A DNA stretch of 44,951 nt, taken from UHGV virus genome UHGV-0212259; one strand, 5' to 3'. Position numbers and translations under genes: made by a program. A model generated the notes under the pieces. The model saw nothing but the letters and a program-made list of their open reading frames with translations. It made no database searches and was not told where the DNA came from. Source of the stretch: a virus. Positions 2,326 to 38,848 of the stretch are shown here, one piece after another (positions within the stretch are counted from its first letter, which is position 1; each line of letters starts with the position of its first letter).

Positions 2326-2407
2326 AGTCAGTATGTCCCCTGGACGTTGGAACCCGGGCCACCCGGATTTACATGTCAAGAATAAATTATTCCAACATGC
2401 AAGGCAA

Positions 2408-2903: not shown

Positions 2904-3221
2904 GTTTCTCCTTTCTCGATAAGTAAAGCCCCGCCATAAAGCGGGGCGCTAGTCCTTATCATTTAAACATAGAAACGGCATAATCTCAGTAAACCAGTTA
3001 CTTTTTACACAAGCAATAGACTATGGCCCTTCCGAACGCGTCAGCGTAACTACACTCGGACTTAACGTCCGGCTCCGTTACCTGCCACGCCGCGGTCGCT
3101 TGTTCATACTTCACAAGCTCAGGTGGAGCTTAGCACATTTTTGGTGAAAAGTCAACTATTCGAATAGTTTATTCCAACATTTACAATTGAGTGGAATAAC
3201 CGGAATACATAAACAAATAGT

Positions 3222-3253
3222 TTGCGCACCCCAATATAATAGGGTACTATTCA
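3222..3253 (+). promoter_or_regulatory. Promoter with overlapping palindromic operator (type A: TTGCGC-N7-TATAAT overlapping TAATAGGGTACTATTCA)
   Basis: TATAAT at 3235..3240; 23-nt core CCAATATAATAGGGTACTATTCA identical to sites at 5375..5397 and 38826..38848; first ATG 25 nt downstream. Confidence 0.55.
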
Positions 3254-3277: not shown

Positions 3278-3379
3278 ATGTTAGTCGTTATTTCAGTAGT
3301 AATTGCAGTTGATGCGGTGATGTTTCTTTGGGCTTGTAGCGGTATTGGTGACATTGACACGGGTAATGGTGAACTATGA
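3278..3379 (+). CDS. Small hydrophobic peptide (33 aa), first gene of a plus-strand insert cassette
   Basis: GGGGAGG SD then ATG; MLVVISVVIAVDAVMFLWACSGIG...; stop overlaps next start (ATGA). Confidence 0.3.
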   Translation: MLVVISVVIAVDAVMFLWACSGIGDIDTGNGEL

Positions 3380-3720
3380 AATATATTAAATTAGCAGTAG
3401 CAGGTGTTGTAGCCGTTTGTTTGAGTGGTTGCGTAAGGTCGTTGCCAGACCCGGCTTTACAGGTTTATCAGGCAGGGGATACAACGGCAACATGTAATCA
3501 GTTACTATCGAGAATCGCCACGACAAAACAAGCTCAAGCCAACGCTACGCACCGTGTTAATAAGCAAATAGGTACTAACGTTGTACTCGGTGTTACAGGC
3601 GCATTCCTGATTGTTCCGCTGTTCTTTATGGACACGGGCGCCGGGCCTTCTATGGACGAGATGACAGCCGGTAATCGTCTGTCGCAGTTACAACAAACAT
3701 ACGACGAGAAATGCAAATGA
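3376..3720 (+). CDS. Lipoprotein with a C-proximal hydrophobic segment; candidate superinfection-exclusion / receptor-masking protein
   Basis: Signal peptide with lipobox LSGC (MKYIKLAVAGVVAVCLSGC); hydrophobic stretch NVVLGVTGAFLIVPLFF; opposite strand to flanking late genes; own promoter and terminator. Confidence 0.55.
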   Translation: MKYIKLAVAGVVAVCLSGCVRSLPDPALQVYQAGDTTATCNQLLSRIATTKQAQANATHRVNKQIGTNVVLGVTGAFLIVPLFFMDTGAGPSMDEMTAGNRLSQLQQTYDEKCK

Positions 3721-5365: not shown

Positions 5366-5397
5366 TTGCAGACACCAATATAATAGGGTACTATTCA
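5366..5397 (+). promoter_or_regulatory. Promoter with overlapping operator (type A), second copy
   Basis: TTGCAG-N7-TATAAT (5379..5384) overlapping TAATAGGGTACTATTCA; identical 23-nt core to 3231..3253. Confidence 0.55.
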
Positions 5398-5429: not shown

Positions 5430-5711
5430 ATGGCTAAATATTCAAACAGTAATTTACATATGACATGTGTGCATGTTGATGGTGTTCAAGTAGAGTGCGT
5501 CGCCTGTTGCAGGCCTTCATGCGAAGAAGGCATATTTAAAATAGGGCGCAAGTATTGGCTGCACCACGGGTGGTTGACGCGACCTAATGGGGATGCCGAT
5601 GTAGAACTTTGGTGGGTAGAGTATCATGGTCGCTCATATATCTGTTGGCCCGAAACGAAAAACGGCACCACCCGATACACCTCTTCCAGCAATGGATTCA
5701 TATTTGTATAA
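5430..5711 (+). CDS. Cys/Trp-rich small protein (93 aa), hypothetical; single-gene plus-strand insert
   Basis: ATG with AAGGAA SD; CVHVDGVQVECVACCRPSCEEG motif; flanked by own promoter and bidirectional terminator between head morphogenesis and portal genes. Confidence 0.45.
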   Translation: MAKYSNSNLHMTCVHVDGVQVECVACCRPSCEEGIFKIGRKYWLHHGWLTRPNGDADVELWWVEYHGRSYICWPETKNGTTRYTSSSNGFIFV

Positions 5712-5713
5712 AG

Positions 5714-5746
5714 AAAAGATAAGGCCCCTTAAGGGGCCTTTCTATT
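5714..5746. terminator. Bidirectional rho-independent terminator
   Basis: Hairpin AGGCCCC-tta-GGGGCCT at 5722..5738 with flanking A/T runs; between convergent Cys-rich gene and portal gene. Confidence 0.55.
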
Positions 5747-9293: not shown

Positions 9294-9530
9294 TCATTCC
9301 CCACTCTCCTCTTTAGCAATACGTTGCTCAGTTTTAGTGATGCCCCTGCGCGTGAATAACACCGGGCTTGTCTTAACGTGCGTCATAAGACGGTTGTTAT
9401 AAATTACGTGGCGCTCGCAGTCAACGTCTTTGCTGTACTTCGCAATCGTCATTTCGTTGATGCCGGTTTGTCGGCATGTCTCCGCCATCGTGCCGTATTC
9501 TTTTATCAGGTTCGGAATGCTGGTAATCAT
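9294..9530 (-). CDS. Hypothetical small protein, possible HTH DNA-binding
   Basis: 78 aa; segment GTMAETCRQTGINEMTIAKYSKD resembles a helix-turn-helix. Confidence 0.3.
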   Translation of the reverse strand: MITSIPNLIKEYGTMAETCRQTGINEMTIAKYSKDVDCERHVIYNNRLMTHVKTSPVLFTRRGITKTEQRIAKEESGE

Positions 9531-9745
9531 TCTGCAGCAATCTCCACTATGGATATAATTGCAACCTTCGAGTTGGGTGGCATACGCGAGGCCACATCTG
9601 ATTCAATCGATCGAATATCCTTTACTGTAAGTTTTTCACCTTTTTCTGGTGACGCCGTACAGTTGCCGAAGCCAGTTCCTGCGACGCTTGTCCAGGCATA
9701 ACTGATAAAGAAACGTTTCATCATAAGAAATTCCTCGTTGTCCAC
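9527..9745 (-). CDS. Hypothetical small protein with N-terminal hydrophobic/signal-like segment
   Basis: 72 aa; MMKRFFISYAWTSVAGTGFG hydrophobic N-terminus. Confidence 0.3.
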   Translation of the reverse strand: MDNEEFLMMKRFFISYAWTSVAGTGFGNCTASPEKGEKLTVKDIRSIESDVASRMPPNSKVAIISIVEIAAE

Positions 9746-9888
9746 ATCGCATTCGGATATTTGTTATCGCGGTCCTGCACTACAGCAATCATGTTTCCAC
9801 GTTGCACCAGGCAGACGTGCCGCTGTTGCTCGCCGTTGTAGCGGCGCCAGATTGCTTCTTCGATTGCTGCGTTAATGTCACTGAACAT
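9724..9888 (-). CDS. Hypothetical small protein (about 54 aa)
   Basis: ATG-initiated ORF MFSDINAAIEEAIWRRYNGEQQRH... filling the gap between neighbouring genes; below ORF-track length cutoff. Confidence 0.25.
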
Positions 9889-10138
9889 ACCCAACGCCCC
9901 ACATAACTAACATCCCAACCGCTACACCAATGAGGATTGATACTGTGGTATTAGTCCACGCCCGCTGGCTGCGCAAAGTTTCGGCGTTCTCCAGAATATC
10001 GCGAACACGCATTAAGTGTTCAATCTCCAGTTTCGCGGCGGTCAGTTCCTGAGTTGCTTTTGAATATTTACCGTTAACCCTGTCGAGAGCCTTCTTAAGG
10101 TCTTTGTTGTTCTTCTTGAGTTGCTCGATCTGCTCCAT
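9878..10138 (-). CDS. Coiled-coil protein with C-terminal TM anchor
   Basis: 86 aa; heptad-like coiled coil (EQIEQLKKNNKDLKKALDRV...) then hydrophobic tail VSILIGVAVGMLVMWGVGYV. Confidence 0.4.
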   Translation of the reverse strand: MEQIEQLKKNNKDLKKALDRVNGKYSKATQELTAAKLEIEHLMRVRDILENAETLRSQRAWTNTTVSILIGVAVGMLVMWGVGYVQ

Positions 10139-10140
10139 AA

Positions 10141-10323
10141 CTACCCCACTATCTCGTCACCAAGCCACGCCGTTTCTCGTATATCGTCAACCACACAGGC
10201 GGCGTGCTCACGGCTAATTGCAAAAATGTAGAAGCTGAACTTCTTCCCGTCGGCGTCGATATGGTTAACCGAGTAGGGTTTCCACAAGACGCCATCGATA
10301 ACTACTGGTTTAGGCGACTCCAT
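10141..10323 (-). CDS. Hypothetical protein
   Basis: 60 aa ORF tightly packed in the early gene block. Confidence 0.3.
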   Translation of the reverse strand: MESPKPVVIDGVLWKPYSVNHIDADGKKFSFYIFAISREHAACVVDDIRETAWLGDEIVG

Positions 10324-10600
10324 CTTCTGGTCCGACTACATTGTCATACAGCGGGATTATTACGTCGGCTCCGTTCTTTAAGGCCCCGTTTGCCGTGGTG
10401 TAGTAGGCCAGTGACGAACCACTCTCACCGACGAACAACCCCGCGTACACGTTCGGTTCTTGCATCTTAATAGCCAGTAGCTCTTTAAACGCCTCCAGTT
10501 GAAACTCACCGTTAATTGATAGTTGCCCGCCTAACGTCTGTTTCTCTGACTCAAGCACCAGGATACGGTTCTCGAGTGATGCGATTGTGATTTTAGGCAT
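10310..10600 (-). CDS. Hypothetical protein
   Basis: 96 aa ORF; stop/start overlaps with neighbours. Confidence 0.35.
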   Translation of the reverse strand: MPKITIASLENRILVLESEKQTLGGQLSINGEFQLEAFKELLAIKMQEPNVYAGLFVGESGSSLAYYTTANGALKNGADVIIPLYDNVVGPEDGVA

Positions 10601-10851
10601 TATTCTGCTCCCTCATAAAAATCACCATTTCTGTAATCGCCATCAAAATCGTCGTTAGTAGGAGCAGGTTTGTTCAGGTTGAAGCGGTTAATCAGTTCAC
10701 GACGTGTCTCGTAAAGCGACTCTACCATTTGTTCAGCTACAGCGATTTTAGTATTCAGGACGTGCATCACGTGGCTGATGTCTACGCCGCCGTTAACAGC
10801 CTCTACCATCATCTTTTCGTATTCGCGGTCAGTCATTTCTTCTCTCCCCAC
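10600..10851 (-). CDS. Hypothetical protein
   Basis: 83 aa ORF (alternative ATG at 10833). Confidence 0.35.
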   Translation of the reverse strand: MGREEMTDREYEKMMVEAVNGGVDISHVMHVLNTKIAVAEQMVESLYETRRELINRFNLNKPAPTNDDFDGDYRNGDFYEGAE

Positions 10852-10988
10852 ATGCGATTGAGATACTTGTTCTTGTCCGGCCCAGGGAAACTGTTACGTT
10901 TCATCAGTTCCTCGCGTGTAGGGAACGGGGTGTTACTGACTTTACGGCCTACTCGTAATGGTTGGCTTACTTGACCTTGTTCGCTCAT
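10830..10988 (-). CDS. Hypothetical small protein (about 52 aa)
   Basis: ATG ORF MSEQGQVSQPLRVGRKVSNTPFPTREEL...; overlaps neighbours by a few nt. Confidence 0.25.
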
Positions 10989-11137
10989 TTCTTCTCTCCT
11001 GCGTAAGCTGCTTTCAGTGTTTGCATCGCAGCGAACCAGAACGCGTCAGCGGGGATACTGCTACTAAGGTTACTAACGGCGATACGTGCCATCAGTTGTG
11101 CGTCTTTGAATGCTTCGATATCTGTGATTTTCATCTT
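10985..11137 (-). CDS. Hypothetical small protein (about 50 aa)
   Basis: ATG ORF MKITDIEAFKDAQLMARIAV... about 25 nt downstream of the predicted transcription start of the minus-strand promoter at 11168..11196. Confidence 0.25.
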   Translation of the reverse strand, partial: KMKITDIEAFKDAQLMARIAVSNLSSSIPADAFWFAAMQTLKAAYAGEKK

Positions 11138-11167
11138 CTCTACTCCGTTCTCGTTGTCGATGAAGTA

Positions 11168-11196
11168 AATATAATAGGGTCGAAGGTAATAGTCAA
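11168..11196 (-). promoter_or_regulatory. Sigma70-like promoter (TTGACT-17-TATATT) with operator palindrome overlapping the -35
   Basis: Minus-strand TTGACT (11196..11191), 17-nt spacer, TATATT (11173..11168); operator TGAATAGTTGACTATTA spans the -35. Confidence 0.5.
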
Positions 11197-11218
11197 CTAT
11201 TCATTGCAGAAAATAGAT

Positions 11219-11250
11219 AAAAAAAAATCCCGGCTGGGTCAGGGCCGGGA
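11219..11250 (-). terminator. Rho-independent terminator after the endolysin gene
   Basis: Hairpin TCCCGGC..GCCGGGA at 11228..11250 followed on the minus strand by a 9-nt U-run. Confidence 0.65.
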
Positions 11251-11403
11251 TAAAACTGGAGAGCAGAGGGATGGAGCAGGAGGTGATTTAAGTATCGTCG
11301 GATTAGTCTCAGGTGTCAACCTTTACGGAGAGTGTCAATCACACCCCAAATCACGCCAGTTATCGCACCAGCCCAATAGCCAGGAAAATGAAGTCAAACT
11401 CTG

Positions 11404-11904
11404 TCATTTAACAGCCCTCCCGATAGCCTCAGCCTCTTGCCACGGTTTACCGTCGAACAGGGCCAGACGCCCTGCCGTACGGCGACGCAGGCCTAGTAGC
11501 GGTTTGCCGTTCTGGTTGATGAACAGCGCCAGCTTGGCACGCAGGGCCACAACATCGCCCGAGCGGAGTGCCTTACCCGTGCCGGTGGTAGCTGCAATCA
11601 CACCGGCGCCCGCGTTATACACCAGGTCGCAAACAGCGTCGAACTGCGCCTGTGTCAGTGAATGGTGCGCCACCGAATCCACCGCAGCTACGGCCTTAGC
11701 CATATCGCGATTAAGTAACAGGAGGCCTTGTCCCGGTGTGATAGTCTGCCCGGCCTTAACATGTGGGCCATAGCTTCCGTACCCAATAGTAAGGTACTTC
11801 TCATTTGGCGTAGCACGATATGCAGTTCCACGGAACCCCTCGAACGCAGCGGTAAAATGCAATCCATTATCTGAAATGTTTCGAGACACGCTTATGCCCT
11901 CCAT
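11404..11904 (-). CDS. Endolysin, lysozyme-like glycoside hydrolase (GH24-type)
   Basis: 166 aa; N-terminal FEGFRGTAY...YLTIGYGSYG motif block typical of phage lysozymes; directly downstream of two membrane-protein genes. Confidence 0.75.
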   Translation of the reverse strand: MEGISVSRNISDNGLHFTAAFEGFRGTAYRATPNEKYLTIGYGSYGPHVKAGQTITPGQGLLLLNRDMAKAVAAVDSVAHHSLTQAQFDAVCDLVYNAGAGVIAATTGTGKALRSGDVVALRAKLALFINQNGKPLLGLRRRTAGRLALFDGKPWQEAEAIGRAVK

Positions 11905-12139
11905 ACGACAGCCACGCCTGACGAATCTGGCGCAGCGCGACTAATGTGATTAATGTCTCAGGCAGCGTAGGCGACATGCTGCCCTGTAACAGGTGAATAC
12001 ATCCGGCGGCACAGACGATAGCAGTCAGGATATAGAGAACACGCCCGAACAGCCCGTCGTCCACGCGTTCATTATACACGTTGAACAGGGACGAAGCGCC
12101 CATTGCCAGCATTACGACAAACCAGAATAGCTCAGTCAT
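11867..12139 (-). CDS. Small membrane protein, second holin or antiholin
   Basis: About 90 aa from ATG 12139 (ATGA overlap with upstream holin stop); two predicted TM helices; overlaps endolysin start. Confidence 0.45.
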   Translation of the reverse strand: MTELFWFVVMLAMGASSLFNVYNERVDDGLFGRVLYILTAIVCAAGCIHLLQGSMSPTLPETLITLVALRQIRQAWLSYGGHKRVSKHFR

Positions 12140-12440
12140 GCGGTCCTCCTGGGCGGGCAATATCGCCGCCCGATACGATGCCAGAAAGGCGGGAATAGAT
12201 AGGCATCCAGAGAATGGCAATGATGAATCCGAGGCCAGCTATCTCGCGCTCCCCGGTAATGCCAAACCATTGAGCTGCAAGAGGTGCGCCAAATACGGCG
12301 CAAGTGAAGCCGGTTGCGATAAAGCAGAAGCCGTCGATAGGGCCAGAAATAACGGACTTATGTTGTCGCAGTCCGATAACCCCTCCAGCAAGAGCGGCCG
12401 CCAGAAGCCACCCCGTCACTGTTTCAGTAAATTTATCCAA
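12132..12440 (-). CDS. Holin (multi-TM small membrane protein)
   Basis: 102 aa; TTG start; three hydrophobic segments; first gene of holin / membrane protein / endolysin cassette. Confidence 0.55.
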   Translation of the reverse strand: MDKFTETVTGWLLAAALAGGVIGLRQHKSVISGPIDGFCFIATGFTCAVFGAPLAAQWFGITGEREIAGLGFIIAILWMPIYSRLSGIVSGGDIARPGGPHD

Positions 12441-12499
12441 GATGAATCCTCCAGGTGCGTATTAAGTATGCAGTAACTGGAGGATACCACGGGTAGGAA

Positions 12500-12940
12500 T
12501 TATCCTAATAGTTGTTTGGTAATAATCTTGCCGCCGGTGTTAGTGTCGAACTTCGATGCAACGGCTACGCCGCCATGCGCCGAATATTCGCACTCCATAG
12601 CGGCTAATGCATATGGCGAGCCAGACCCCACGGCGGCGTACACATCAGCAACCGGAATAACTGAACTAAGTGCACAATCCCATGATTTATAGAACGCGAC
12701 TTTGTACACCTTTTCTGTGTCTTTCACGAACACCAGGGCTTCGAAATCGAAGTCATAATGTCTTGCCTGAAGGATATACGGACAATCGATAAGCATAGTT
12801 CCGACTCCGGCATCACCAGCTACCCCGATAACATAGACATCACTCTCATATATCTTTGTGTCTGTGTTGTAACAGTTACTTCCGCACACAACACGGGTGT
12901 CACAGGCCATTGTCTTTCCGTCAAACGCGATTGTAGTCAT
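12500..12940 (-). CDS. HslV/proteasome-beta-like N-terminal-nucleophile hydrolase (putative threonine peptidase)
   Basis: 146 aa; begins MTTIAFDG (Thr directly after Met as in HslV); VIGVAGDAG and AVGSGSPYALAA segments resemble HslV GFAGG and GSGGPYA blocks; similarity judged from memory. Confidence 0.5.
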   Translation of the reverse strand: MTTIAFDGKTMACDTRVVCGSNCYNTDTKIYESDVYVIGVAGDAGVGTMLIDCPYILQARHYDFDFEALVFVKDTEKVYKVAFYKSWDCALSSVIPVADVYAAVGSGSPYALAAMECEYSAHGGVAVASKFDTNTGGKIITKQLLG

Positions 12941-13230
12941 TTATGTCTCCAGATGTATTGTCGTCTCTGCGGTTTCGTCGGAATATCTTCATACCCCAGC
13001 GATTTCCAGTAATTAAATAACCTATTAGCGATAGCTGCGCGTTCCTGTGTTTTGAACTCACCGAGATTCACGGCCTTCCCGTTCTGAAATCCACAGGCGC
13101 GGACCGCTTTGCGTCTGGCCTGAATCTCTGGGTACAGCGAGTTACGGCGGCGCTTATGTATTCTGGTGTTCGCTCTCGGTGACAGCGGCGCAAGGCCGCT
13201 TCGTTTCAGGATGTCAGTTGCAAGAGACAT
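12937..13230 (-). CDS. Small basic protein, possible AP2-like DNA-binding domain
   Basis: About 97 aa from ATG 13230; segment NGKAVNLGEFKTQERAAIANRLFNYWKSLGYE resembles the AP2-like C-terminal region of the two HNH endonucleases in this window. Confidence 0.3.
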   Translation of the reverse strand: MSLATDILKRSGLAPLSPRANTRIHKRRRNSLYPEIQARRKAVRACGFQNGKAVNLGEFKTQERAAIANRLFNYWKSLGYEDIPTKPQRRQYIWRHK

Positions 13231-13517
13231 CACTCCACCCCTTCCACATGTGTAACAGCCCCACAGTTCGCGCACTCGACGTAATCCGGGAACTGGTCTT
13301 TGTATTTCTGTAACTCGGCGTTCACTTCTGCCAGTCTTGACACAAGCCCCTCTATTTCCATATCCGTAGTGGTTATGTAGTCCTGGAAACTGTCGTCCAG
13401 TTCCTTGTAATCTTCGTAACTTATCCAGTCGCCTTCGTCACTCTTAACCAGCTCATGATACGGGTGGCACGAGTTAACACACACAGCTCTAAACTCATAT
13501 CTCTGTACCATAATCAC
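13230..13517 (-). CDS. Hypothetical protein with C-terminal CxxC
   Basis: 95 aa; CVNSCHPYHE and YVECANCGAVTHV motifs. Confidence 0.35.
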   Translation of the reverse strand: MIMVQRYEFRAVCVNSCHPYHELVKSDEGDWISYEDYKELDDSFQDYITTTDMEIEGLVSRLAEVNAELQKYKDQFPDYVECANCGAVTHVEGVE

Positions 13518-13717
13518 TTCTCCTGTTTACCAAGTCGCTTAGGTGAGCATATAGCGCGTACCTCTGAATCGTTGGGCTTGTCGCCCTGAAACAGGAAGTG
13601 CGCGTTCTCTGCGGCGCGTGCTGCAGACTGGCACGCCTCCATCGAATAAAACGTTTCTGCTGCCGCTAGTTGCATCTGGCCCGCAGACAGTACCCAGATA
13701 AAGAGGATGCCGGTCAT
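13514..13717 (-). CDS. Small secreted/periplasmic protein (signal peptide)
   Basis: 67 aa; N-terminal hydrophobic signal-like segment MTGILFIWVLSAGQMQLAAA. Confidence 0.35.
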   Translation of the reverse strand: MTGILFIWVLSAGQMQLAAAETFYSMEACQSAARAAENAHFLFQGDKPNDSEVRAICSPKRLGKQEK

Positions 13718-14412
13718 TCAGGTATAACCCCTCCGCAGTTGTCGCATACTATCGTGTTTCCGTGGTAGGTACCGCAGTGGGCAGGAACGCACTGACATAC
13801 AGGAAGCCCCACGTCTTCCTTACGGCAACCAGATTGCTCGGCTATAACCCCGCATTTGGCACAACGCCTATGCTCTTCGCCGTTAGGGTAATAATATTCC
13901 CACTCATGTTTGCATTTCTGCGTATAGGCTTTCGGCTCATACTCCGGGTCATCCCACTCACGCACACCACATTCGCAGCAAAACCGACTACCAGGCACGT
14001 TGCCCTCGTGGCCTTCGGCAATAAACAATCCTGGAGCGATAATCCAATTGTGGTCGCATTCCTGAGTATCTTCTTTTCGGCAACCGGATTGTTCTGGTGC
14101 ATCCTTACATCCGAGTTCCTCAAGTGCTTTGCTAAGGTATTGGCGACGCATGGTGTCAGTCATTGCACTATTTGCCCGCCGGATGTACCCAATCGCGCCT
14201 TTAGGGTCCAGGTCAACGATTGAACGAAGACACATAACCTCGTTTTCAGCGCAATCCAGCGCACAGGTTAGTTCCTTAATCTGCGCCGAAGCATCACGTA
14301 ACTGATTCTTAAGTGACTGCACTTCATGCGCCAGGTCTTCGCACCGGTTGTTATTTACCTGCTGCCGTAGCTGGTCAATCAGGTACTCGAATACTTCGTT
14401 TTTGTTACTCAT
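13714..14412 (-). CDS. Cys-rich protein with N-terminal coiled coil and internal repeat (probable zinc-binding)
   Basis: 232 aa; multiple CxxC pairs (CCECG, CAKCG, CDNCGG); the nonapeptide EQSGCRKED occurs twice. Confidence 0.45.
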   Translation of the reverse strand: MSNKNEVFEYLIDQLRQQVNNNRCEDLAHEVQSLKNQLRDASAQIKELTCALDCAENEVMCLRSIVDLDPKGAIGYIRRANSAMTDTMRRQYLSKALEELGCKDAPEQSGCRKEDTQECDHNWIIAPGLFIAEGHEGNVPGSRFCCECGVREWDDPEYEPKAYTQKCKHEWEYYYPNGEEHRRCAKCGVIAEQSGCRKEDVGLPVCQCVPAHCGTYHGNTIVCDNCGGVIPE

Positions 14413-14440
14413 ATTCTCTCTCTCCTCTCGTTTGTGTAAA

Positions 14441-14472
14441 TGAATAGTAGTCTATTCTATCTCAGTGTGCAA
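14441..14472 (-). promoter_or_regulatory. Promoter with overlapping operator (type A, minus strand)
   Basis: Minus-strand TTGCAC-N7-TAGAAT followed by AGACTACTATTCA; palindrome TGAATAGTAGTCTATTC at 14441..14457; about 30 nt upstream of ATG 14412. Confidence 0.5.
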
Positions 14473-14479
14473 GTAAATT

Positions 14480-14710
14480 TTATTGGTGTTTTAGTAACTC
14501 GCTTTCACCCGCTCCGGTTATCTGAACCACATCACGAGCAGCATTGAGGTACACGGTTCTTATAAGCCCTTTACTACGGAGGCGTCTGGCGACCATAGTG
14601 CATAACTCATCAGAATCTTGCCACCAGTAACGGTCGAACCTGCCCATGAGCATAGTTCTGCCGTTCGCTATTTCCCGTAGGGTCTCTGCCTGTCGTTTCG
14701 TTAGTTTCAT
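14480..14710 (-). CDS. Hypothetical protein
   Basis: 76 aa ORF with SD. Confidence 0.35.
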   Translation of the reverse strand: MKLTKRQAETLREIANGRTMLMGRFDRYWWQDSDELCTMVARRLRSKGLIRTVYLNAARDVVQITGAGESELLKHQ

Positions 14711-14845
14711 TGTTGCATCTCCTGCAATAATCGCTTCTATTGTTGCGTTCGGTGAAAGTGTCGCTTTTTGACGACACTAATCTAAAGTTGTACGCTGCTG
14801 TGTAGCAGCGTAAGTCACTCAGTCAAATAGTAACCTATTGACCTG

Positions 14846-15046
14846 TTACACCAGTTTCGGCGGTTTAGGCAATTTCCTCCAGTGCGTTATATCCTCGTTG
14901 TCTATGACAGAGTTGAATTCATCCCAACTATCCCACTCATCCGAATCATCATCGAACCATTTAATCTCAACCTCTCCCCCATCAGTCACAAGTACATGAG
15001 AGAAAGGAGCGGGCATCTGCTCACTGCACTTAATCCACTTACCCAT
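14846..15046 (-). CDS. Hypothetical acidic small protein (resembles the phage DUF551 family from memory)
   Basis: 66 aa; MGKWIKCSEQMPAP...WFDDDSDEWDSWDEF. Confidence 0.4.
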   Translation of the reverse strand: MGKWIKCSEQMPAPFSHVLVTDGGEVEIKWFDDDSDEWDSWDEFNSVIDNEDITHWRKLPKPPKLV

Positions 15047-15196
15047 ATCTCACCTCGTATTCATCACAGCTTGCACACCAGCTTTCCACGCCCGCCACGC
15101 TAGACGCGTCTTAACGTTCAGGTACTCTTTCTTTGAACCTTTGTTAACCGGCAGACCCTCGACGACAGCCCACCGTTCGAATGCTTCTCTCACAAC

Positions 15197-15400
15197 TCAG
15201 CCCTCATCGTCATTTTCTCTCCCTAGATATGAAAGAGATGTAATAGCGGCGGCGGTAAATCCATCACAGTCAATCATACGTTTTAGTTTCTCCACATCGT
15301 CCTGCGATTTTATGCGAAACAGTAATTGCGCCACCCCCGCCACCGAGGACCTCCCACCCTCTGACACAGCGTTATAGTGATAAATATATCTATTGCTCAT
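15197..15400 (-). CDS. Hypothetical protein
   Basis: ORF with start at internal ATG (MSNRYIYHYN...). Confidence 0.3.
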   Translation of the reverse strand: MSNRYIYHYNAVSEGGRSSVAGVAQLLFRIKSQDDVEKLKRMIDCDGFTAAAITSLSYLGRENDDEG

Positions 15401-15471
15401 ACCAACCCCCACAACACGTGCACCACACAAACGGCGATGACAATTAAAATAAACTGGTAATTATTCATAAC

Positions 15472-15729
15472 TTAGTCCTTAACCCGTACCCAAAACTCAC
15501 CGTGTGACCAGCACCATAAAAGATTAGGCGTCTCGCGAACCCACCCGTAGTCCTTACGTGCACGAATCGGGATAATACCCTTAGTGAAATAATAACCTGT
15601 TCGCAGAAACTCAGGGTCGCGAGTCGCAGTGCGCCACATGTTATAAAACTGCTCCAGCCCGGAACCCCGGCGCATGACCCGTATTTTATGGTTATATTCC
15701 GCTACTGTTTTCAGTTCAGTGTTATTCAT
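15472..15729 (-). CDS. Hypothetical Trp-rich protein
   Basis: 85 aa ORF MNNTELKTVAEYNHK... Confidence 0.35.
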   Translation of the reverse strand: MNNTELKTVAEYNHKIRVMRRGSGLEQFYNMWRTATRDPEFLRTGYYFTKGIIPIRARKDYGWVRETPNLLWCWSHGEFWVRVKD

Positions 15730-15786
15730 TTACGGCAACCTCCCTCAGAGTCGTCGGCACTGGCGCCATGATTCGGCGCCGTGGGT

Positions 15787-16005
15787 TTATTTAAAGTAGA
15801 TAGCGAATTTCTTGTAACCCGCAGGCTCATTACGAAGCCCCTTACCGATAGCGAAACGTTGTACGTTAATAAAATCATTTTCATCCATTCCGTCGGTGTC
15901 GAACGTAAAGAAGTTGCGCTTGTTCCCGATAATTACGCGCTCTGAAATATCGATGCCGTAAACTTCTCTTATTGCGGAAACCACGCTTGCGGTCGCTTTG
16001 TTCAT
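15787..16005 (-). CDS. Hypothetical protein, first gene of the minus-strand early operon
   Basis: 72 aa ORF about 35 nt downstream of the predicted transcription start of the promoter at 16037..16068. Confidence 0.35.
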   Translation of the reverse strand: MNKATASVVSAIREVYGIDISERVIIGNKRNFFTFDTDGMDENDFINVQRFAIGKGLRNEPAGYKKFAIYFK

Positions 16006-16036: not shown

Positions 16037-16068
16037 TGAATAGTAACCTATTATGTTGGGGTGTGCAA
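16037..16068 (-). promoter_or_regulatory. Promoter with overlapping operator (type A, minus strand)
   Basis: Minus-strand TTGCAC-ACCCCAA-CATAAT-AGGTTACTATTCA, near-identical to the plus-strand 23-nt core. Confidence 0.5.
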
Positions 16069-16518
16069 GAGATTCATTGAAAATGGTTACGTTGCCGTTG
16101 TGATTCTTCAGGTAGGGTTGTGCCTTTATTCTTATTACTTAGTAACTAAAGGGCAGGCCTTAAGCCTGCCCAATAATCGTTACATTTTTACGGTTGCGAA
16201 TCTACGGCACATTAAGAAAATCAGATACTTAAGAGATATGCCGCCGATGAGAATAGAGCTTGCCCAGGGTAACCGGAGATACTTAGGGAGGAAGTTACGA
16301 TAATTCTTATGTTCAGTAAACTTTCGCTTAACACTTTGCTTGCGCTGCGCGCAGCTGCGTTTTAAGCGGTTTTACAAGGTGAACAGGAATCAAAGTAACT
16401 AAGATACAGAAGCACCTTAAACGAAGATTTTCATAATGTCAATAGGTGCGATTATGTTTGATTTCCCATTATTCGCAATGTATACTTGGTTTCGTTAACT
16501 GATAATGAGGGTTTGAGA

Positions 16519-16689
16519 ATGACACAGAATGAAGTAGCTGAGCGTATCGGGGTTACTCGCCGCACGCTGAATAACTGGTTAAGGAGCGGGAAGTTCCCGG
16601 ATTGTTGTATCCGCATTATGGGTCGCCGCCAGCCTGGTACGTTCGACCCGGAGAAAGTGGAAGCGTGGATTAAGGAGAACGTGAAATGA
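16519..16689 (+). CDS. Small HTH DNA-binding protein
   Basis: 56 aa from ATG 16519 with GAGGG SD; segment VAERIGVTRRTLNNWLRSGKFP is a classic helix-turn-helix. Confidence 0.5.
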   Translation: MTQNEVAERIGVTRRTLNNWLRSGKFPDCCIRIMGRRQPGTFDPEKVEAWIKENVK

Positions 16690-16919
16690 CCGAGTTCCAG
16701 TCACGTGTATTCACGGCGGTCGTTTCATTAACACGTAAAAAAGGGTCGTGCAGCGTTATCGACTTGCGCCGTAGTTATTTTAAGTACTATAGTTCAGCCA
16801 TTATTGAAGGGTCGTTAAAGGCGCTGGTTAAATATGGTGTCGTGAAAAACGTTGGCGGGAAATATAGTGCCGTTGCTGAAGTTCGCGGAATGGCGGCCAC
16901 TTTAGAAGACCTGGAATAA
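16686..16919 (+). CDS. Hypothetical protein (C-terminal ...LEDLE tail)
   Basis: 77 aa ORF translationally coupled to the upstream HTH gene. Confidence 0.4.
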   Translation: MTEFQSRVFTAVVSLTRKKGSCSVIDLRRSYFKYYSSAIIEGSLKALVKYGVVKNVGGKYSAVAEVRGMAATLEDLE

Positions 16920-16977
16920 AAGAAAGCCCCGACGCGGTGAACGCCGAGGCTAAATTACTTGCTGAAGGAAATACAAC

Positions 16978-19218: not shown

Positions 19219-19220
19219 GT

Positions 19221-19250
19221 AAAAAGAAAGGGGCGTTAAGCCCCTTCACC
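19221..19250. terminator. Hairpin terminator shared by converging primase-helicase and repressor genes
   Basis: AAGGGGC-gttaa-GCCCCTT at 19228..19246 with A-run upstream (U-run on minus strand). Confidence 0.5.
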
Positions 19251-19451
19251 GAACGCCAGCCACTTGGCGTCTACTTGCAGCACTTCCGCCAGTTTAAACA
19301 GCGTTGCCGGGCGGACGTCCTGAGTTACCCCGAGTGCGAGCTGGTTAATCGCACCCTGGGAAACGCCGGCCAGGACAGCCAGACGGCGCTGTGAGATGCC
19401 GAGTTCTTTACGGCGTTGTTCTACACGAATGCCTAGTTCAGATGGTTGCAT
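19236..19451 (-). CDS. XRE/Cro-type HTH transcriptional regulator
   Basis: 71 aa; LGISQRRLAVLAGVSQGAINQLALG is a canonical XRE helix-turn-helix; encoded divergently from the operator-bearing promoters at 19472..19544. Confidence 0.7.
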   Translation of the reverse strand: MQPSELGIRVEQRRKELGISQRRLAVLAGVSQGAINQLALGVTQDVRPATLFKLAEVLQVDAKWLAFGEGA

Positions 19452-19471
19452 GTCAATTACTCCTTAGTCAG

Positions 19472-19500
19472 TTGATATGTGAATAGTACCATATTAATTA
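19472..19500 (+). promoter_or_regulatory. Promoter/operator, upstream copy of a tandem pair
   Basis: TTGATA-17-TAATTA with palindrome TGAATAGTACCATATTA in the spacer. Confidence 0.4.
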
Positions 19501-19515
19501 TTTTAGAAAAGCCAA

Positions 19516-19544
19516 TTGACATGTGAATAGTTCGCTATTATAGT
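19516..19544 (+). promoter_or_regulatory. Sigma70 consensus-like promoter with operator in the spacer (type B)
   Basis: TTGACA (19516..19521), 17-nt spacer containing GAATAGTTCGCTATT, TATAGT (19539..19544); about 30 nt upstream of first early plus-strand ORF. Confidence 0.6.
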
Positions 19545-19575
19545 TAGCCCATACCAAATGAGAGGAGAGAAACAA

Positions 19576-19725
19576 ATGATTAACAACCGCAAAGCAAAGA
19601 TTCTGTTAGGACTTGATATAGCATTCGGGGTTAAAGAAACTGCGCGCTATCGCGTGAGCAACAATCGTGTTGGCTTCTTCGACAAAGTAACAGGTCAGTT
19701 AGTTAAAACCGTTAAATATAAATAA
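19576..19725 (+). CDS. Hypothetical small protein (49 aa), first early plus-strand gene
   Basis: ATG preceded by GGAGAGAAACAA, the same 12-nt SD context as the next gene. Confidence 0.35.
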   Translation: MINNRKAKILLGLDIAFGVKETARYRVSNNRVGFFDKVTGQLVKTVKYK

Positions 19726-19740
19726 ACAGGAGAGAAACAA

Positions 19741-21756: not shown

Positions 21757-22004
21757 TTCGTAAAATGTTCAGAGTAATTGGCGGTTTTGTGGCGTGTATT
21801 ATTTTCTGGGTTCTTATGTCGCCGCTAATGATACCAACATTTATCATAGCGTGCCTTACGATATGCCTAATGCGAACACGCGACATCGAAGCCATCCTGA
21901 ATGACAAATCGTGGAAGACACAGGCGTTACGTTTCATAAACAACATGAAATGGCCAAACAAGTATATTGAGATAGTTGAGAAAATAACTGGCTGGAAGGG
22001 TTGA
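21753..22004 (+). CDS. Small membrane protein (2 TM)
   Basis: 83 aa from ATG 21753 (ATGA overlap with upstream stop; GAGGAGGA SD); hydrophobic segments VIGGFVACIIFWVLM and IPTFIIACLTICLM. Confidence 0.45.
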   Translation: MIRKMFRVIGGFVACIIFWVLMSPLMIPTFIIACLTICLMRTRDIEAILNDKSWKTQALRFINNMKWPNKYIEIVEKITGWKG

Positions 22005-22029
22005 CACCTGAATAGTTAGCTATTATATT
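22001..22029 (+). promoter_or_regulatory. Sigma70-like promoter with operator in spacer (type B) upstream of SSB-like gene
   Basis: TTGACA (22001..22006), 17-nt spacer containing TGAATAGTTAGCTAT, TATATT (22024..22029). Confidence 0.55.
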
Positions 22030-25831: not shown

Positions 25832-26112
25832 CCCCGGAAGGCAAGATTCAGAAATACGCAAAAGACCGATTCGAGGCCATTGGTGGCCTCGTTCGTAAAC
25901 TTTCCTACGAAGGACGTTCCGGTGCTCCTGACCTGCTGGTGATTCTCCCCGGCGGTATAATCTGGTTTGTCGAGGTGAAGAAAGACGAAAACACGAAGCC
26001 AGACCCGCACCAGTTACGTGAGCACGAGCGGATGCGTAAACGTGGTGCGAATGTTTTTGTCGTTGGTTCGTTTAAACAGGTTGACGACCTAATAGCGAAC
26101 TATTATAGTTAG
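25828..26112 (+). CDS. VRR-NUC domain nuclease
   Basis: 94 aa; PD-(D/E)XK signature GAPDLLVIL...WFVEVKK characteristic of VRR-NUC. Confidence 0.65.
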   Translation: MTPEGKIQKYAKDRFEAIGGLVRKLSYEGRSGAPDLLVILPGGIIWFVEVKKDENTKPDPHQLREHERMRKRGANVFVVGSFKQVDDLIANYYS

Positions 26113-34198: not shown

Positions 34199-35596
34199 TT
34201 AACCGCCCACATTAAAGTCGATACGAGTGATGTATTTACTGCCCCACGAAGAATCCGCTTGGGGGATGGCGGCATAACCGTCAACAGCCTGAACGTTTAC
34301 CACAGAGCCGTCGGAATAGGTTATGTCGATGCTTATTGCGCCGTTCATTACTACTTTTGCCGATGCCGCTTGGCGGGTTACAGCAGAAGAATTGGTTATT
34401 ATTGGCGAAGTAGCAAATTCTGATTTTTCTATTTGCATCGCACATACTAATACCCCGCTAACACCGTCACCCGCAAACGACGCAGCCTGGGCATTGTCGT
34501 ACACCCACGATGCTAACAGTAGAGAAGAAGCCCCTCCTTGACGTATCTCCACTTGCTCGGTAAATCTGTACCAACCACCGCCACAGTTAATTATAGTACT
34601 ATTAGCGGCTCCAGAGGATATAGTTCCGTCCTGCAGATTAGCACGACAATCAGAGATAAACCCCACATTATCAGCAGCGCGAAGTCTTGCATAATTATAA
34701 CCATAGGCCTTAGCCACGTAACTGAGGGTGTATATATCTCCTTCCGCAAAAGCGGAAGACACTGATTGCTGTGTGATATGGTTGCCGTTCGTCGTGGTCG
34801 GGGTTAGCGAGAACGTACCGCCGTTTAGAATTACATCTACTGCATCTGACACCGTTGTGTTAGTTTTTGACCACGATGCGTCAGATAATTTCGACGATTT
34901 AATCAGAATATTGCTGGATGCGGATTCCGGCGGCACACGCCCGACAGCAACCCCGTCAACAAACGTAAGAGGCCATTCATTGGCGGCGGACCGCACAAGA
35001 TTACCGTTGCGGTTGATATAGTAAACCTGTGGCCCATCATACACAATGCGGCTATCAAGAGTCGATGCCAGAAGGTTAATCGGCGGGTATCCTGCAGGCC
35101 CTTCATTGCTCCAGATACGCGGGAACGTCGTCTCATAGTTAGCGTATATTTTCAGGAAACTACCCAGGCAGTCACCATAGCAGCCGTACAAATCTGGCAG
35201 ATTGTTAATCAGGCACTGGTTCTCAAGGTCCTGGAACGGTGATTTCTCGGCGGTTGCCGTGAAAGTAATCGTCCAGTTAATGCCGTCTTCGGTGGACTCC
35301 GCGATGGTGGACGTGATTGTTACCTGATAATCCTCGATACCCATGCCGAAGTCGTGCGCCATCCAGAAACTTGACGCACCGCCATCGACTTTCTCAAGGA
35401 ACGACAAAAACGCCTGGCGCCCCATTGCGGATGTAATCAGGGTTACGCTCACCGGAAACACGTCGTAATACGTGTCACGGCCCTGACGTACGCCGCCGGC
35501 CGCTAAATCTACACTCCAGACGTTGTTACGTCTGGTCATCGAGTAACCTTTCGACACAATAGGCTTAAGGCTACGTGGGAAATATAAGTCGGTCAT
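34199..35596 (-). CDS. Distal tail protein (putative)
   Basis: 465 aa immediately downstream of tape measure gene (start/stop overlap). Confidence 0.45.
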   Translation of the reverse strand: MTDLYFPRSLKPIVSKGYSMTRRNNVWSVDLAAGGVRQGRDTYYDVFPVSVTLITSAMGRQAFLSFLEKVDGGASSFWMAHDFGMGIEDYQVTITSTIAESTEDGINWTITFTATAEKSPFQDLENQCLINNLPDLYGCYGDCLGSFLKIYANYETTFPRIWSNEGPAGYPPINLLASTLDSRIVYDGPQVYYINRNGNLVRSAANEWPLTFVDGVAVGRVPPESASSNILIKSSKLSDASWSKTNTTVSDAVDVILNGGTFSLTPTTTNGNHITQQSVSSAFAEGDIYTLSYVAKAYGYNYARLRAADNVGFISDCRANLQDGTISSGAANSTIINCGGGWYRFTEQVEIRQGGASSLLLASWVYDNAQAASFAGDGVSGVLVCAMQIEKSEFATSPIITNSSAVTRQAASAKVVMNGAISIDITYSDGSVVNVQAVDGYAAIPQADSSWGSKYITRIDFNVGG

Positions 35597-38816: not shown

Positions 38817-38848
38817 TTGCAGGCCCCAATATAATAGGGTACTATTCA
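38817..38848 (+). promoter_or_regulatory. Promoter with overlapping operator (type A), third identical copy
   Basis: TTGCAG-GCCCCAA-TATAAT (38830..38835) overlapping TAATAGGGTACTATTCA. Confidence 0.55.

Follow-up and report, generated by a model that had tools for sequence, protein, structure and literature searches.

The operators of phage 434 (OR/OL, ACAA-N6-TTGT) are palindromes of 14 bp, and those of P22 c2 and Cro are 18-bp palindromes of the ATTTAAG-N4-CTTAAAT type. Genome-wide sets of repressor sites are known from P1 (C1 operators), mycobacteriophage L5 (gp71 'stoperators') and phiC31 (conserved inverted repeats), temperate phages in which the repressor maintains lysogeny. The C proteins of restriction-modification systems, HTH_3 dimers of about 70-80 aa with paired palindromes (C-boxes) in their own promoter, time expression after entry.

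The window analysed here, a stretch of 44,951 nucleotides (UHGV-0212259), is a near-complete genome of a Kagunavirus (Guernseyvirinae), 93% coding, whose host is E. coli and whose group is regarded as virulent. In fBC-Eco01, the consensus tgAATAGTa-ccTATTat-T has been published as seven PHIRE 'phage promoters' and assigned there to a phage-encoded RNA polymerase (PMC9825357); these belong to the same sequence family as the sites described below and lie at orthologous positions. Seven PHIRE promoters are also given for VB_EcoS-Golestan (PMC7203180), known here by their number alone. The portions of both papers available to us describe neither the palindrome, nor its three sigma70 registers, nor a link to an XRE protein (PMC9825357, PMC7203180). 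Our literature search found no paper treating the motif as an operator, and the BASEL, Raoultella and Serratia eta papers are silent on regulation. The motif itself is previously published; what we add is its reading as an operator.

Neither the gene map nor the annotations of relatives contain a cI-type repressor with an oligomerisation/cleavage domain, an integrase or other lysogeny functions, and Pfam scans of the small unknown proteins likewise revealed no cI-type or lysogeny gene. The cI and lysogeny genes that a lambdoid immunity region (the cI-cro bistable switch) requires are absent from the window. Nor do the annotated products, or those scanned with Pfam, include a phage RNA polymerase or sigma factor: all ORFs longer than 300 aa but one, an unnamed 465-aa ORF within the tail-gene cluster (34199..35596), are assignable to structural or replication proteins, and when the small proteins of unknown function were scanned against Pfam and PHROGs, no polymerase or sigma domain turned up.

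The window does encode, on the minus strand at 19236..19451, a 71-aa XRE protein with a 434-Cro-like helix-turn-helix (Pfam HTH_3, E 1.2e-12), followed by a terminator at 19247-19227. In a phmmer comparison with PDB it matched 434 Cro, its closest solved relative (E 4.9e-07, residues 6-68 aligned, about full length), as well as the 434 repressor and, weakly, the P22 c2 DNA-binding domain (E ~3e-3). It has the same length as 434 Cro, aligns with it end to end and conserves Gln28 of the recognition helix. The protein is also 45% identical to the closest lambdoid Cro, annotated in the Klebsiella phage RCIP0098; the operators seen beside that gene are of the 434 type (ACAA..TTGT) and thus uninformative as a guide to AATAG specificity.

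As in 434, the palindromes of the window measure 14 bp, with a variable centre, they overlap promoter elements, and the regulator gene adjoins two of them in a divergent control region. Unlike 434, the window lacks a cI partner, an integrase and an OR/OL layout with three operators, and some 12 putative operators lie scattered over a virulent genome. Their half-site is AATAG and not ACAA, and the XRE gene stands alone on the opposite strand, in the place of cI, instead of first in a rightward operon. The 5-bp core half-sites ending in AG/CT around a 4-bp uncontacted centre recall P22, from which the system differs in half-site sequence and in that P22 is a temperate immunity system with few operators. 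With P1, L5 and phiC31 it shares a small regulator and a dozen or more near-identical scattered sites, many at early promoters. Those phages, however, are temperate, whereas the present group counts as virulent and its XRE protein has the size of a Cro; moreover, P1 and L5 sites are asymmetric and L5 stoperators act within transcribed regions, unlike the family here. C proteins offer a parallel in size, in the HTH_3 domain and in the paired palindromes of their own promoter. They act at one locus and activate before they repress, whereas here there are many target promoters and no sign of activation.

A palindrome family at predicted promoters

The original prediction described at least nine intergenic copies of an inverted repeat, GAATAG-N4-CTATTC, built into sigma70-like promoters. 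All coordinates and sequences that it quoted check out, and the set has grown to 12 family sites, near-matches included, all of them at intergenic or gene-end promoter positions; the four overlooked sites are 26081..26109, 19481..19496, 14825..14840 and 3146..3161. A motif search of the whole window found ten exact copies of the 14-bp core AATAG-N4-CTATT against 0.04 expected, and the same search in relatives recovered the family in Jerseyvirus. With up to two mismatches allowed, GAATAG-N4-CTATTC gives 14 matches against 1.86 expected, a number reached in none of 100 shuffles. The motif is far from equally frequent inside coding regions, since 11 of these matches are intergenic and one lies inside the final 23 nt of a gene (binomial P ~4e-11); the two intragenic matches, at 30196 and 42435, carry two mismatches each and equal the chance expectation in number. 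The family ranks first both in an unbiased palindrome scan and in a PHIRE-like 16-mer scan, the runner-up repeat families being terminator hairpins with four copies.

Each half-site spans 5 bp, the two centres are separated by 10 bp, the halves are equally conserved, and the N4 varies between classes. The 23-nt core said to be identical at three plus-strand sites, CCAATATAATAGGGTACTATTCA, is indeed exact at 3231, 5375 and 38826, and recurs with two mismatches at 16037 on the minus strand. Two further palindromes had been regarded as related. The one at 3156..3167, CTATTCGAATAG, arises where an extra half-site CTATTC abuts the family site 3146..3161, of which it is the edge. In turn, GAATAAATTATTC at 2380..2392 is a separate element, since its spacing differs from that of the family and it is also kept in the Cornellvirus-like phage St162, which itself lacks the family.

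Promoters were predicted as sigma70-type consensus-hexamer matches, and we infer that these hexamers are real promoters. Relative to them, the palindrome occupies three registers: the -10/start region (class A; palindromes at 3237, 5381, 14442, 16038 and 38832, plus 19481, at the promoter of the XRE gene itself), the -35/-10 spacer (class B; 19525, 22010 and 26090) and the -35 itself (class C; 3146 and 11187). It overlaps a predicted -35, spacer or -10 at 11 of the 12 sites, and covers part of five of the window's seven best sigma70-like matches. Class A sites allow two readings of the -10, either TATAAT without a -35 or TTGCAC-17-TACTAT, and are conserved over about 32 bp, N4 and flanks included, well past the palindrome; they are under some constraint besides the operator. 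This extended, asymmetric conservation is confined to the class A subset, and what the sites share is the palindrome in three registers, not an asymmetric sequence at one fixed register. Such an arrangement fits steric repression and does not fit position-dependent activation; judged from sequence, it would thus suit a repressor and not an activator or a phage-RNA-polymerase promoter.

Three putative class A promoter/operators lie on the plus strand. At 3222..3253, TTGCGC (3222-3227), TATAAT (3235-3240), the palindrome TAATAGGGTACTATTC (3237-3252) and TACTAT (3245-3250) precede a moron-like cassette encoding a 33-aa membrane protein (start 3278) and a 114-aa lipoprotein; the counterpart in fBC-Eco01 is annotated as PHIRE 'phage promoter2'. 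At 5366..5397, TTGCAG, TATAAT, the palindrome (5381-5396) and TACTAT are followed by a 93-aa Cys-rich moron gene (5430-5711) and a bidirectional terminator (5721-5740). The third, at 38817..38848, has TTGCAG, TATAAT, the palindrome (38832-38847) and TACTAT upstream of genes for a Sie-like membrane protein, an HTH+metallophosphatase protein, a HAD phosphatase and a P-loop kinase. Back-to-back with it, on the minus strand, lies the predicted tail-operon leader promoter TTGGGG-16-TAGAAT (38829-38802), the only convincing candidate in a search for a shared late-promoter motif upstream of structural operons. An int-alpA RNA motif was observed in the tail-operon leader.

The two minus-strand sites reported to have the same architecture are likewise of class A. 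At 14441..14472, TTGCAC (14472-14467), TAGAAT (14459-14454) and TACTAT (14449-14444) accompany GAATAGACTACTATTC (14457-14442), the sole perfect 16-bp palindrome of the family, upstream of a gene starting at 14412. At 16037..16068, TTGCAC (16068-16063), CATAAT, the palindrome (16053-16038) and TACTAT (16045-16040) precede a series of small early genes from 16005.

Palindromes had also been placed at TTGACA/TTGACT-17 promoters at 19516, 22001 and 11168, and they do overlap them, in the spacer, the spacer and the -35, respectively. The class B promoter at 19516..19544 on the plus strand, TTGACA-17-TATAGT (11/12 consensus), holds the palindrome GAATAGTTCGCTATTA (O1; 19525-19540) in its spacer and faces h49, hyp51, hyp50 and a DUF2800 exonuclease. 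Also on the plus strand, TTGACA-17-TATATT at 22001..22029 (11/12 consensus; palindrome in the spacer at 22010-22025) leads into genes for a DUF2815 SSB-like protein, an HNH endonuclease and DNA polymerase I, and TTGACG-17-TATAGT at 26081..26109 (10/12 consensus; palindrome TAATAGCGAACTATTA at 26090-26105) into hyp39, HNH/AP2 and helicase genes.

Both class C sites lie on the minus strand. At 11168..11202 the palindrome GAATAGTTGACTATTA (11202-11187) includes the -35 TTGACT (11196-11191), with the -10 TATATT at 11173-11168, upstream of hyp71, DUF2737, further small genes and NinH. At 3146..3161, GAATAGTTGACTTTTC is centred on the -35 TTGACT (3155-3150) of a promoter TTGACT-17-TAAGCT (-10 at 3132-3127) upstream of hyp09; this promoter is 'host promoter1' of fBC-Eco01. 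The two class C promoters lead towards late-gene regions (nin-like/terminase and hyp09/spanin/capsid), which a pure early shut-off leaves unexplained. A further family member, CAATAGGTTACTATTT at 14825..14840 on the minus strand, has a perfect 14-bp core, atypical outer bases and no clear promoter hexamers, and the orthologous stretch in the Jerseyvirus SE2 is degenerate.

Sister-genus conservation and the candidate binder

The 124-bp region upstream of the XRE gene contains two members of the family. Besides O1, which also overlaps the -35 of a leftward TTCACA promoter, a weaker palindrome, TAATATGGTACTATTC (O2; 19481..19496, minus strand), lies 30 nt ahead of the XRE start codon, either inside the candidate promoters of that gene or immediately downstream of them (a class-A-type TACTAT at 19488-19483, or TTCACA-16-TAAAAT at 19527-19500). 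The distance from O1 to O2 is 44 bp in Kagunavirus and 55 bp in Jerseyvirus; the extra 11 bp correspond to about one helical turn.

The family is present in the Jerseyviruses SE2 and Ent1 at orthologous promoters, namely those of the XRE region (twice), SSB, HJR/helicase, the early operons, the Sie cassette and the nin-like operon; SE2 has nine matches against 1.4 expected. The 14-bp core is identical in the two genera, and the outer bases differ. G-type and T-type are about equally frequent in Kagunavirus (35 G vs 29 T, three genomes), where site alignments usually place the T-type half under a -10-like hexamer, whereas Jerseyvirus has T instead of G, with G in 0 of 28 half-sites (Fisher 9e-8 pooled, 1e-3 for one genome each). 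In this regard, the site at 26081..26109 has 'Jersey-flavoured' outer bases and belongs to a module with 92-97% protein identity to SE2.

The XRE proteins of the two genera are 51% identical and carry the recognition helices SQGAINQ (Kagunavirus) and SQSLITH (Jerseyvirus); no change of the helix is seen in variants with as little as 77% identity. The genus-specific outer base thus appears to track the XRE recognition helix, and not the helix of the HTH_17 protein considered below, in a covariation that is effectively a single evolutionary event. The two helices differ at four positions despite the identical 14-bp core, which would be unexpected if those residues read the core. A third XRE/operator lineage was sought and not obtained: fEg-Eco19 is of the standard Kagunavirus type, the metagenomic XRE variants leave the helix unchanged down to that same 77% identity, and the Cornellvirus-like phages offer just A(A/T)TAC-N4-CTAAT, a weak element related to the motif but not palindromic and recognised post hoc. 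In the latter phages, SP-031 and St162 included, the palindrome is absent though an XRE homologue is kept (39-41% identity). EcoPhCCP1, considered as a natural XRE knockout, proved to be an annotation gap, since tblastn finds XRE there at 98.6% identity.

Other candidate binders were rejected: the 77-aa (16686-16919) and 76-aa (14480-14710) proteins are absent from the motif-bearing fBC-Eco01, the HTH+metallophosphatase protein (39106-40236) is present in the motif-less St162, and NinH is present in every clade, motif-less ones included. XRE is most likely the operator-binding repressor, to judge from these comparisons.

With respect to the notion of one phage regulator of an early or accessory regulon, a promoter-embedded operator for one phage regulator is well supported by the 10-bp-spaced palindrome, its three registers, its conservation in Jerseyvirus, the two copies at the XRE promoter and the variant that follows the helix. 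The proposed extent of the regulon, in turn, was too narrow: the regulon would also take in the gene of the regulator itself, operons for replication/recombination and two promoters that head into the nin-like/terminase and hyp09/spanin/capsid regions.

Alternative readings of the palindrome

We regard as the probable explanation, with modest confidence and from sequence comparison, that the palindromes are operators, with dimeric XRE as their most likely binder, and that binding would occlude the sigma70 promoters and repress them. The strongest of the alternatives, which we nevertheless consider unlikely, is that the palindromes are bound by a 56-aa HTH_17 (Xis/AlpA/Cox-like) protein encoded on the plus strand at 16519..16689, acting either as a repressor or as a Q/AlpA-like RNA polymerase-loading factor. 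Its gene opens the primase-helicase operon, and the promoter of that operon contains no palindrome; lacking an operator of its own, the gene may be immediate-early. The protein (78-98% identity) is found only in the palindrome-bearing genera, Kagunavirus and Jerseyvirus, and is absent from the palindrome-less Cornellvirus-like SP-031 and St162. However, this co-occurrence amounts to one module replacement, the whole primase-helicase region being different in Cornellvirus, and the related spacer element persists (post hoc) in Cornellvirus-like phages without the protein. The 89% identity of HTH_17 between the genera, against 51% for XRE, agrees with the identical 14-bp core; its helix variants (TRRTLNNW vs TRQTINNW), in contrast, do not follow the genus-specific outer base, the helix being identical in the window and SE2 yet variable within Kagunavirus. 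Proteins of the HTH_17/Xis/Cox type typically bind direct repeats as monomers or filaments and not palindromes with 10-bp spacing, which counts against this protein. As for polymerase loading, several promoter-to-terminator units exist and the tail-operon leader has its int-alpA RNA motif, but most palindrome promoters run straight into genes, terminators follow only some units, and the protein has no similarity to solved AlpA or Q structures. In RNA-seq of K1B4 an 'HTH domain' gene (008) peaks early (PMC12645636), and by inferred gene order it would correspond to HTH_17. As evidence, these transcriptomic data were set aside, for their time resolution is too coarse and gene identities can be mapped only by that inferred order.

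A phage-specific promoter element, read by host RNA polymerase, possibly phage-modified, and with no dedicated repressor, is a further reading to which we give little credence. Palindromy would then be a side effect of back-to-back promoters whose -10-like hexamers overlap on the two strands. In line with this notion, seven 'phage promoters' are annotated in both fBC-Eco01 and Golestan, class A sites share about 32 bp at a constant 25-33 nt from start codons, and every class A site of the window has TACTAT (one SE2 class A site has TACTAC). Moreover, the half-sites themselves look like -10 hexamers, the conserved CCCCAA upstream of TATAAT at 38832 is the opposite-strand -35 (TTGGGG) of the tail-leader promoter, and Cornellvirus-like promoters retain the non-palindromic version of the element. 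Yet neither the annotation nor the Pfam scans show an RNA polymerase or sigma gene, on which ground promoters of a phage RNA polymerase in particular were rejected, and the same palindrome stands in three registers against near-consensus sigma70 hexamers. Class B promoters at 11/12 consensus need no additional element, and the left half-site of class B and both halves of class C have no sigma70 role, yet are conserved across two genera. Nor would an RNA polymerase common to E. coli and Salmonella explain the genus switch in the outer base.

Binding by a host transcription factor, which would couple early phage transcription to host physiology, seems very improbable. AT-rich palindromes with GAAT/ATTC ends bear a general resemblance, and that alone, to some enterobacterial operator types. 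The ARG box is TGAAT-N4-ATTCA, to which the separate 13-bp palindrome at 2380..2392 is closer than the family, whose spacing is GAAT-N8-ATTC. A host factor would also have to differ in specificity between its E. coli and Salmonella orthologues to account for the genus-specific outer base, and it is simpler to assume a Cro-like protein of the phage, which has two sites at the promoter of its gene. Finally, the remote idea that the repeat acts as an RNA or DNA hairpin (in processing, stability or termination), for which one symmetric double change that keeps pairing can be cited (Ent1 TAATAG..CTATTA vs SE2 TAGTAG..CTACTA), is dismissed as an RNA hairpin by marginal predicted stems (0 to -3.3 kcal/mol) and mostly one-sided deviations, at least eight family sites breaking a pair in a 5-6 bp stem, and the repeats lack a following U-run and any Rfam family match and, in classes B and C, lie upstream of the predicted start site.

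A proposed Cro-like circuit in a virulent phage group

Returning to the operator reading, we propose that a dimeric phage-encoded helix-turn-helix repressor would bind the AATAG-N4-CTATT operators, each of which would cover a core element of a promoter used by host RNA polymerase (sigma70). As XRE builds up after infection, RNA polymerase would be occluded and the promoters turned down; we infer XRE to be the binder and its binding to repress. The units affected would be the moron-like superinfection-exclusion and nucleotide-metabolism cassettes, the small early genes and the replication/recombination operons, together with the XRE gene itself through negative autoregulation via O1 and O2. Overall, this would amount to a Cro-like shut-off or dosing circuit of about 12 sites in a phage without a cI gene or an integrase. 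That a Cro-type dimer occludes sigma70 promoters is a textbook principle, and the switch would be of an ordinary kind, though in an unusual setting.

Since the operators cover nearly every recognisable early or middle promoter, XRE and its approximately 12 operators might form a genome-wide silencing circuit through which these phages enter a carrier or pseudolysogenic state, repressed and non-integrated, with immunity to superinfection, a possibility that we hold to be doubtful. Such a state has been claimed phenotypically for the Jerseyvirus SGP-C, on the grounds of turbid plaques and immune episomal 'lysogens' (PMC8790156). In a variant of this idea, likened to lambda OR2/PRM or phi29 p4, single operators in back-to-back modules (38802-38848) might switch the early cassette off and permit or activate the divergent late tail operon.

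If correct, the operator reading would provide a first mechanistic handle on temporal gene control in Guernseyvirinae, a large group (over 400 Kagunavirus and Jerseyvirus genomes have been sequenced) that has been widely put forward for use in therapy, in food biocontrol and as synthetic-biology chassis. It would amend the published attribution of the sites to a phage RNA polymerase that is absent from the genomes, and would supply a compact, portable promoter-operator cassette, along with a natural pair of G-type and T-type operators that could be orthogonal. XRE pre-expressed in the host might then block infection, and loss of XRE might deregulate early genes. The question also bears on whether these therapy-candidate phages are truly obligately lytic.

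Genome organization and a recurrent palindrome

The window corresponds to an essentially complete, circularly permuted Kagunavirus (Guernseyvirinae) genome, with 91-95% identity to the E. coli phages M01, EM1 and P AB-2017. In the gene map, for which the annotation of the Kagunavirus fBC-Eco01 was transferred by tblastn and further ORFs were added, the coding share is 93%. Structural and late genes lie on the minus strand, broken by three small moron-like plus-strand cassettes placed antisense within the structural block (3278-3720, 5430-5711 and 38876-41272). Small early genes and lysis genes occupy 9294-16005 (minus strand) and replication genes 16519-28761 (plus strand); alone on the minus strand among the latter stands XRE (19236-19451), the gene of a 71-aa 434-Cro-like helix-turn-helix (HTH) protein.

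The palindrome GAATAG-N4-CTATTC, allowing two mismatches, is found 14 times in the window against 1.86 expected, and its 14-bp core AATAG-N4-CTATT occurs in 10 exact copies against 0.04. The family ranks first in both motif-blind scans, one covering all 5-mer/gap/reverse-complement palindromes and the other being a PHIRE-like tally of 16-mers with up to three mismatches. Its 12 sites start at 3146, 3237, 5381, 11187, 14442, 14825, 16038, 19481, 19525, 22010, 26090 and 38832; all are intergenic except one, which falls within the final 23 nt of a gene (P ~4e-11). Matches inside genes (30196 and 42435, two mismatches each) are as many as chance predicts, so the motif is not equally frequent in coding regions, the outcome that the original prediction had set against itself. 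The sequences and coordinates quoted there are all correct; the list lacked 26081-26109, 19481-19496 and 14825-14840, and the related palindrome placed at 3156-3167 is the edge of a site at 3146-3161.

The same family is present in the Jerseyviruses SE2 (9 matches against 1.4 expected) and Ent1, at the orthologous promoters of the XRE control region (two sites), SSB, HJR/helicase, the early leftward operons, the nin-like operon and the Sie cassette. These sites are kept between genera whose proteins are 50-90% identical, amid otherwise diverged intergenic DNA, which argues for function. The outer base of the half-site is G or T about equally often in Kagunavirus, T-type halves tending to overlap a -10-like hexamer, and is G in none of 28 Jerseyvirus half-sites. 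Taken together, the family of promoter-embedded palindromes is real, statistically overwhelming and conserved in two phage genera.

The only window site that is T-type on both sides, 26090, probably arrived together with its module. In this regard, the proteins of HJR, hyp39, HNH/AP2 and helicase (25828-28249, SE2 100-2468) share 92-97% identity with those of SE2, against 50-85% for the neighbours; the segment looks like a recent inter-genus exchange, with 26090 and its Jerseyvirus-type outer bases at its edge.

The palindrome is absent from the two Cornellvirus-like phages searched, SP-031 and St162. Within the spacer/-10 region of their TTGACA-17-TAATAT promoters lies A(A/T)TAC-N4-CTAAT, an element that is not a palindrome (St162 9671, 9734, 13665, 26799, 13004, 25360 and 3862, with orthologues in SP-031); two copies of it adjoin the Cornellvirus-like XRE gene. 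St162 holds 9 matches against 2.2 expected, for a pattern derived post hoc from St162 itself; possibly this element and the Kagunavirus/Jerseyvirus candidate operator are diverged relatives.

Registers of the palindrome in predicted promoters

Relative to predicted core promoter elements, the sites fall into three classes. In class B (19525, 22010, 26090) the palindrome fills the -35/-10 spacer: TTGACA/G is followed by 3 nt and then by the palindrome, whose final two bases open a TATAGT or TATATT -10. Scored against the sigma70 consensus, these promoters match at 10-11 of 12 positions, which puts all three among the window's top four; they head operons for recombination, SSB/polymerase and helicase, respectively. 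In class C (11187, 3146) the -35 lies at the middle of the palindrome, its hexamer TTGACT forming the N4 centre along with some of the right half. The site at the nin-like operon of the Jerseyviruses is of class C too.

Class A (3237, 5381, 38832, 16038, 14442, 19481 at the XRE promoter, and the degenerate copy 14825) shares the block cTTGCACaCCCCAAyATAATAGGnTACTATTCA, 25-33 nt from the start codon. One reading is TTGCAC-17-TACTAT, with TACTAT invariant among the class A sites of the window; the other is TATAAT without a -35, and under both the palindrome covers the -10/start region. The left half is mostly T-type where it overlaps TATAAT, and half-sites off any -10-like hexamer are mostly G-type, which suggests that TATAAT matters too.

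Overlap with core promoter elements in differing registers fits a steric repressor; an activator that depends on its position, or a promoter specific to one polymerase, would not tolerate it. No RNA polymerase or sigma gene turned up when the small unknown proteins were scanned with Pfam and PHROGs, and the large ORFs encode structural or replication proteins, bar a single 465-aa ORF without a name among the tail genes. Two points sit less neatly with a repressor: class A conservation reaches well past the operator, and the class C promoters are predicted to point at late-gene regions. The motif is in print as the consensus tgAATAGTa-ccTATTat-T of seven PHIRE 'phage promoters' of fBC-Eco01 (PMC9825357), assigned there to an RNA polymerase of the phage itself. 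We found no paper that reads the palindrome as an operator; the Golestan paper also gives seven PHIRE promoters, considered here by number.

Cassettes and neighbouring control elements

Each moron-like cassette starts with a class A promoter/candidate operator and ends with a bidirectional terminator. At 5430 the window encodes a 93-aa Cys-rich protein, fBC-Eco01 a 173-aa gene annotated as sliding clamp, and EcoPhCCP1, SE2 and Ent1 an amidase; such differing contents suggest that exchange takes place at boundaries set by the promoter-operator and the terminator. In the third cassette, one class A promoter precedes a 376-aa 'DNA repair exonuclease' (39106-40236, plus strand; PHROG 704, calcineurin-like phosphoesterase), whose N-terminal segment ARKKITDEQLQEELNAGMKNIDIARKYGISDRVIRIRKAKL appears HTH-like by eye, then a HAD/PNK-like phosphatase and a dNMP-kinase-like P-loop protein.

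At 38802-38848 this promoter and a conserved minus-strand TTGGGG-16-TAGAAT promoter (38829-38802) are arranged back to back; the predicted transcript of the latter would start at the 5' end of an int-alpA RNA motif (RF02996; 38734-38798, minus strand; 36.4 bits, gathering score 35.8). The motif, with conserved core GCGCCUAG...CGAAAAGCGGG...CCCGCCUGGCGC, is part of the tail-assembly-chaperone/tail operon leader and is kept at the same place in SE2 and Ent1. Since the 38832 palindrome is immediately upstream of the TTGGGG -35 (centre near -44.5), a dual early-off/late-on role is conceivable; Jerseyvirus sequence does not keep the two hexamers.

The 13-bp palindrome GAATAAATTATTC upstream of the scaffold gene (2380-2392, minus strand; context 2326-2407), originally counted as related, is a different element. 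It directly abuts a TTGACA hexamer and the GC hairpin CCGGGTGGCCCGG, and the whole block recurs in St162, which lacks the AATAG-N4-CTATT family, pointing to a separate, older element. Centred near -42 of its TTGACA, it might serve to control late genes; it resembles an ARG box that is one base too long.

Two minus-strand promoter-to-terminator units contain no ORF: 16150-16478 (TTGCGA-16-CATAAT / TTGACA, terminator 16171-16151, ~300 nt), conserved in SE2 (~11850-12140), and 11225-11319 (TTGACA-17-GATACT, terminator near 11230, ~80 nt). Neither matches an Rfam family; each could be a non-coding RNA or an attenuated leader. The HTH_17/primase operon is preceded by a divergent control region of 513 bp, in which direct repeats (T)TAAGTATCT occur at 16214-16412 (copies at 16223 and 16277, a variant at ~16400, read on the minus strand), with similar copies in SE2; they could be binding sites of the Cox/Xis-like HTH_17 protein.

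Candidate binders and a proposed repressor system

XRE has an HTH_3 domain, and its best solved relative, matching along the full length, is 434 Cro. With the Cro of a lambdoid Klebsiella phage it shares 45% identity, and the control region of that phage shows ACAA..TTGT operators of the 434 type. The 434 operator equals the 14-bp core in length (5-bp halves, 4-bp centre), and P22 operators share its 5-N4-5 layout. Two candidate operators (19525-19540 and 19481-19496) flank XRE's own promoter; their spacing differs by 11 bp between genera, about one helical turn, so that the same helix face would be kept, which hints at cooperative binding. Metagenomic variants as distant as 77% identity all keep the recognition helix GVSQGAINQLALGVTQDVR of XRE, and the Jerseyvirus helix, SQSLITH, differs in parallel with the outer-base switch. 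Less easily accommodated are the identity of the 14-bp core in both genera despite four differing helix residues, and the presence of a Cornellvirus XRE without an evident palindrome. In EcoPhCCP1 (PQ384582.1) XRE is omitted from the GenBank annotation, which places a short plus-strand ORF over it; tblastn recovers it at 10117-10329 (minus strand) with 98.6% identity.

The 56-aa HTH_17 protein (16519-16689, plus strand) is the alternative candidate. It is confined to the two palindrome-carrying genera and 89% conserved between them. Its helix variants do not follow the operator variant, and direct repeats are the usual targets of its fold class. The A(A/T)TAC-N4-CTAAT element is also kept in Cornellvirus-like phages devoid of this protein, an argument of little weight because the element was found post hoc. 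Two other small proteins are ruled out by their absence from fBC-Eco01.

The only Kagunavirus time course, that of K1B4 (PMC12645636), is coarse, with time points extending past one infection cycle. Only four genes are early, among them an 'HTH domain' gene which, from gene order, we infer to be that of the HTH_17 protein; by the same reasoning the middle gene 'specific DNA binding' would be XRE.

If the sites are indeed operators, XRE is a reasonably probable binder, and the whole statement, a set of operators for a Cro-like XRE repressor, has in our judgement slightly better than an even chance of being right. Such an operator set best explains the palindrome family: the palindromes would serve a repressor of the Cro kind, here in a group of phages considered virulent. 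Systems of this type are textbook knowledge, and the motif had been printed earlier under a wrong label; what is new is the dispersed candidate regulon of 12 sites, the three registers in which they lie and an operator variant specific to the genus.
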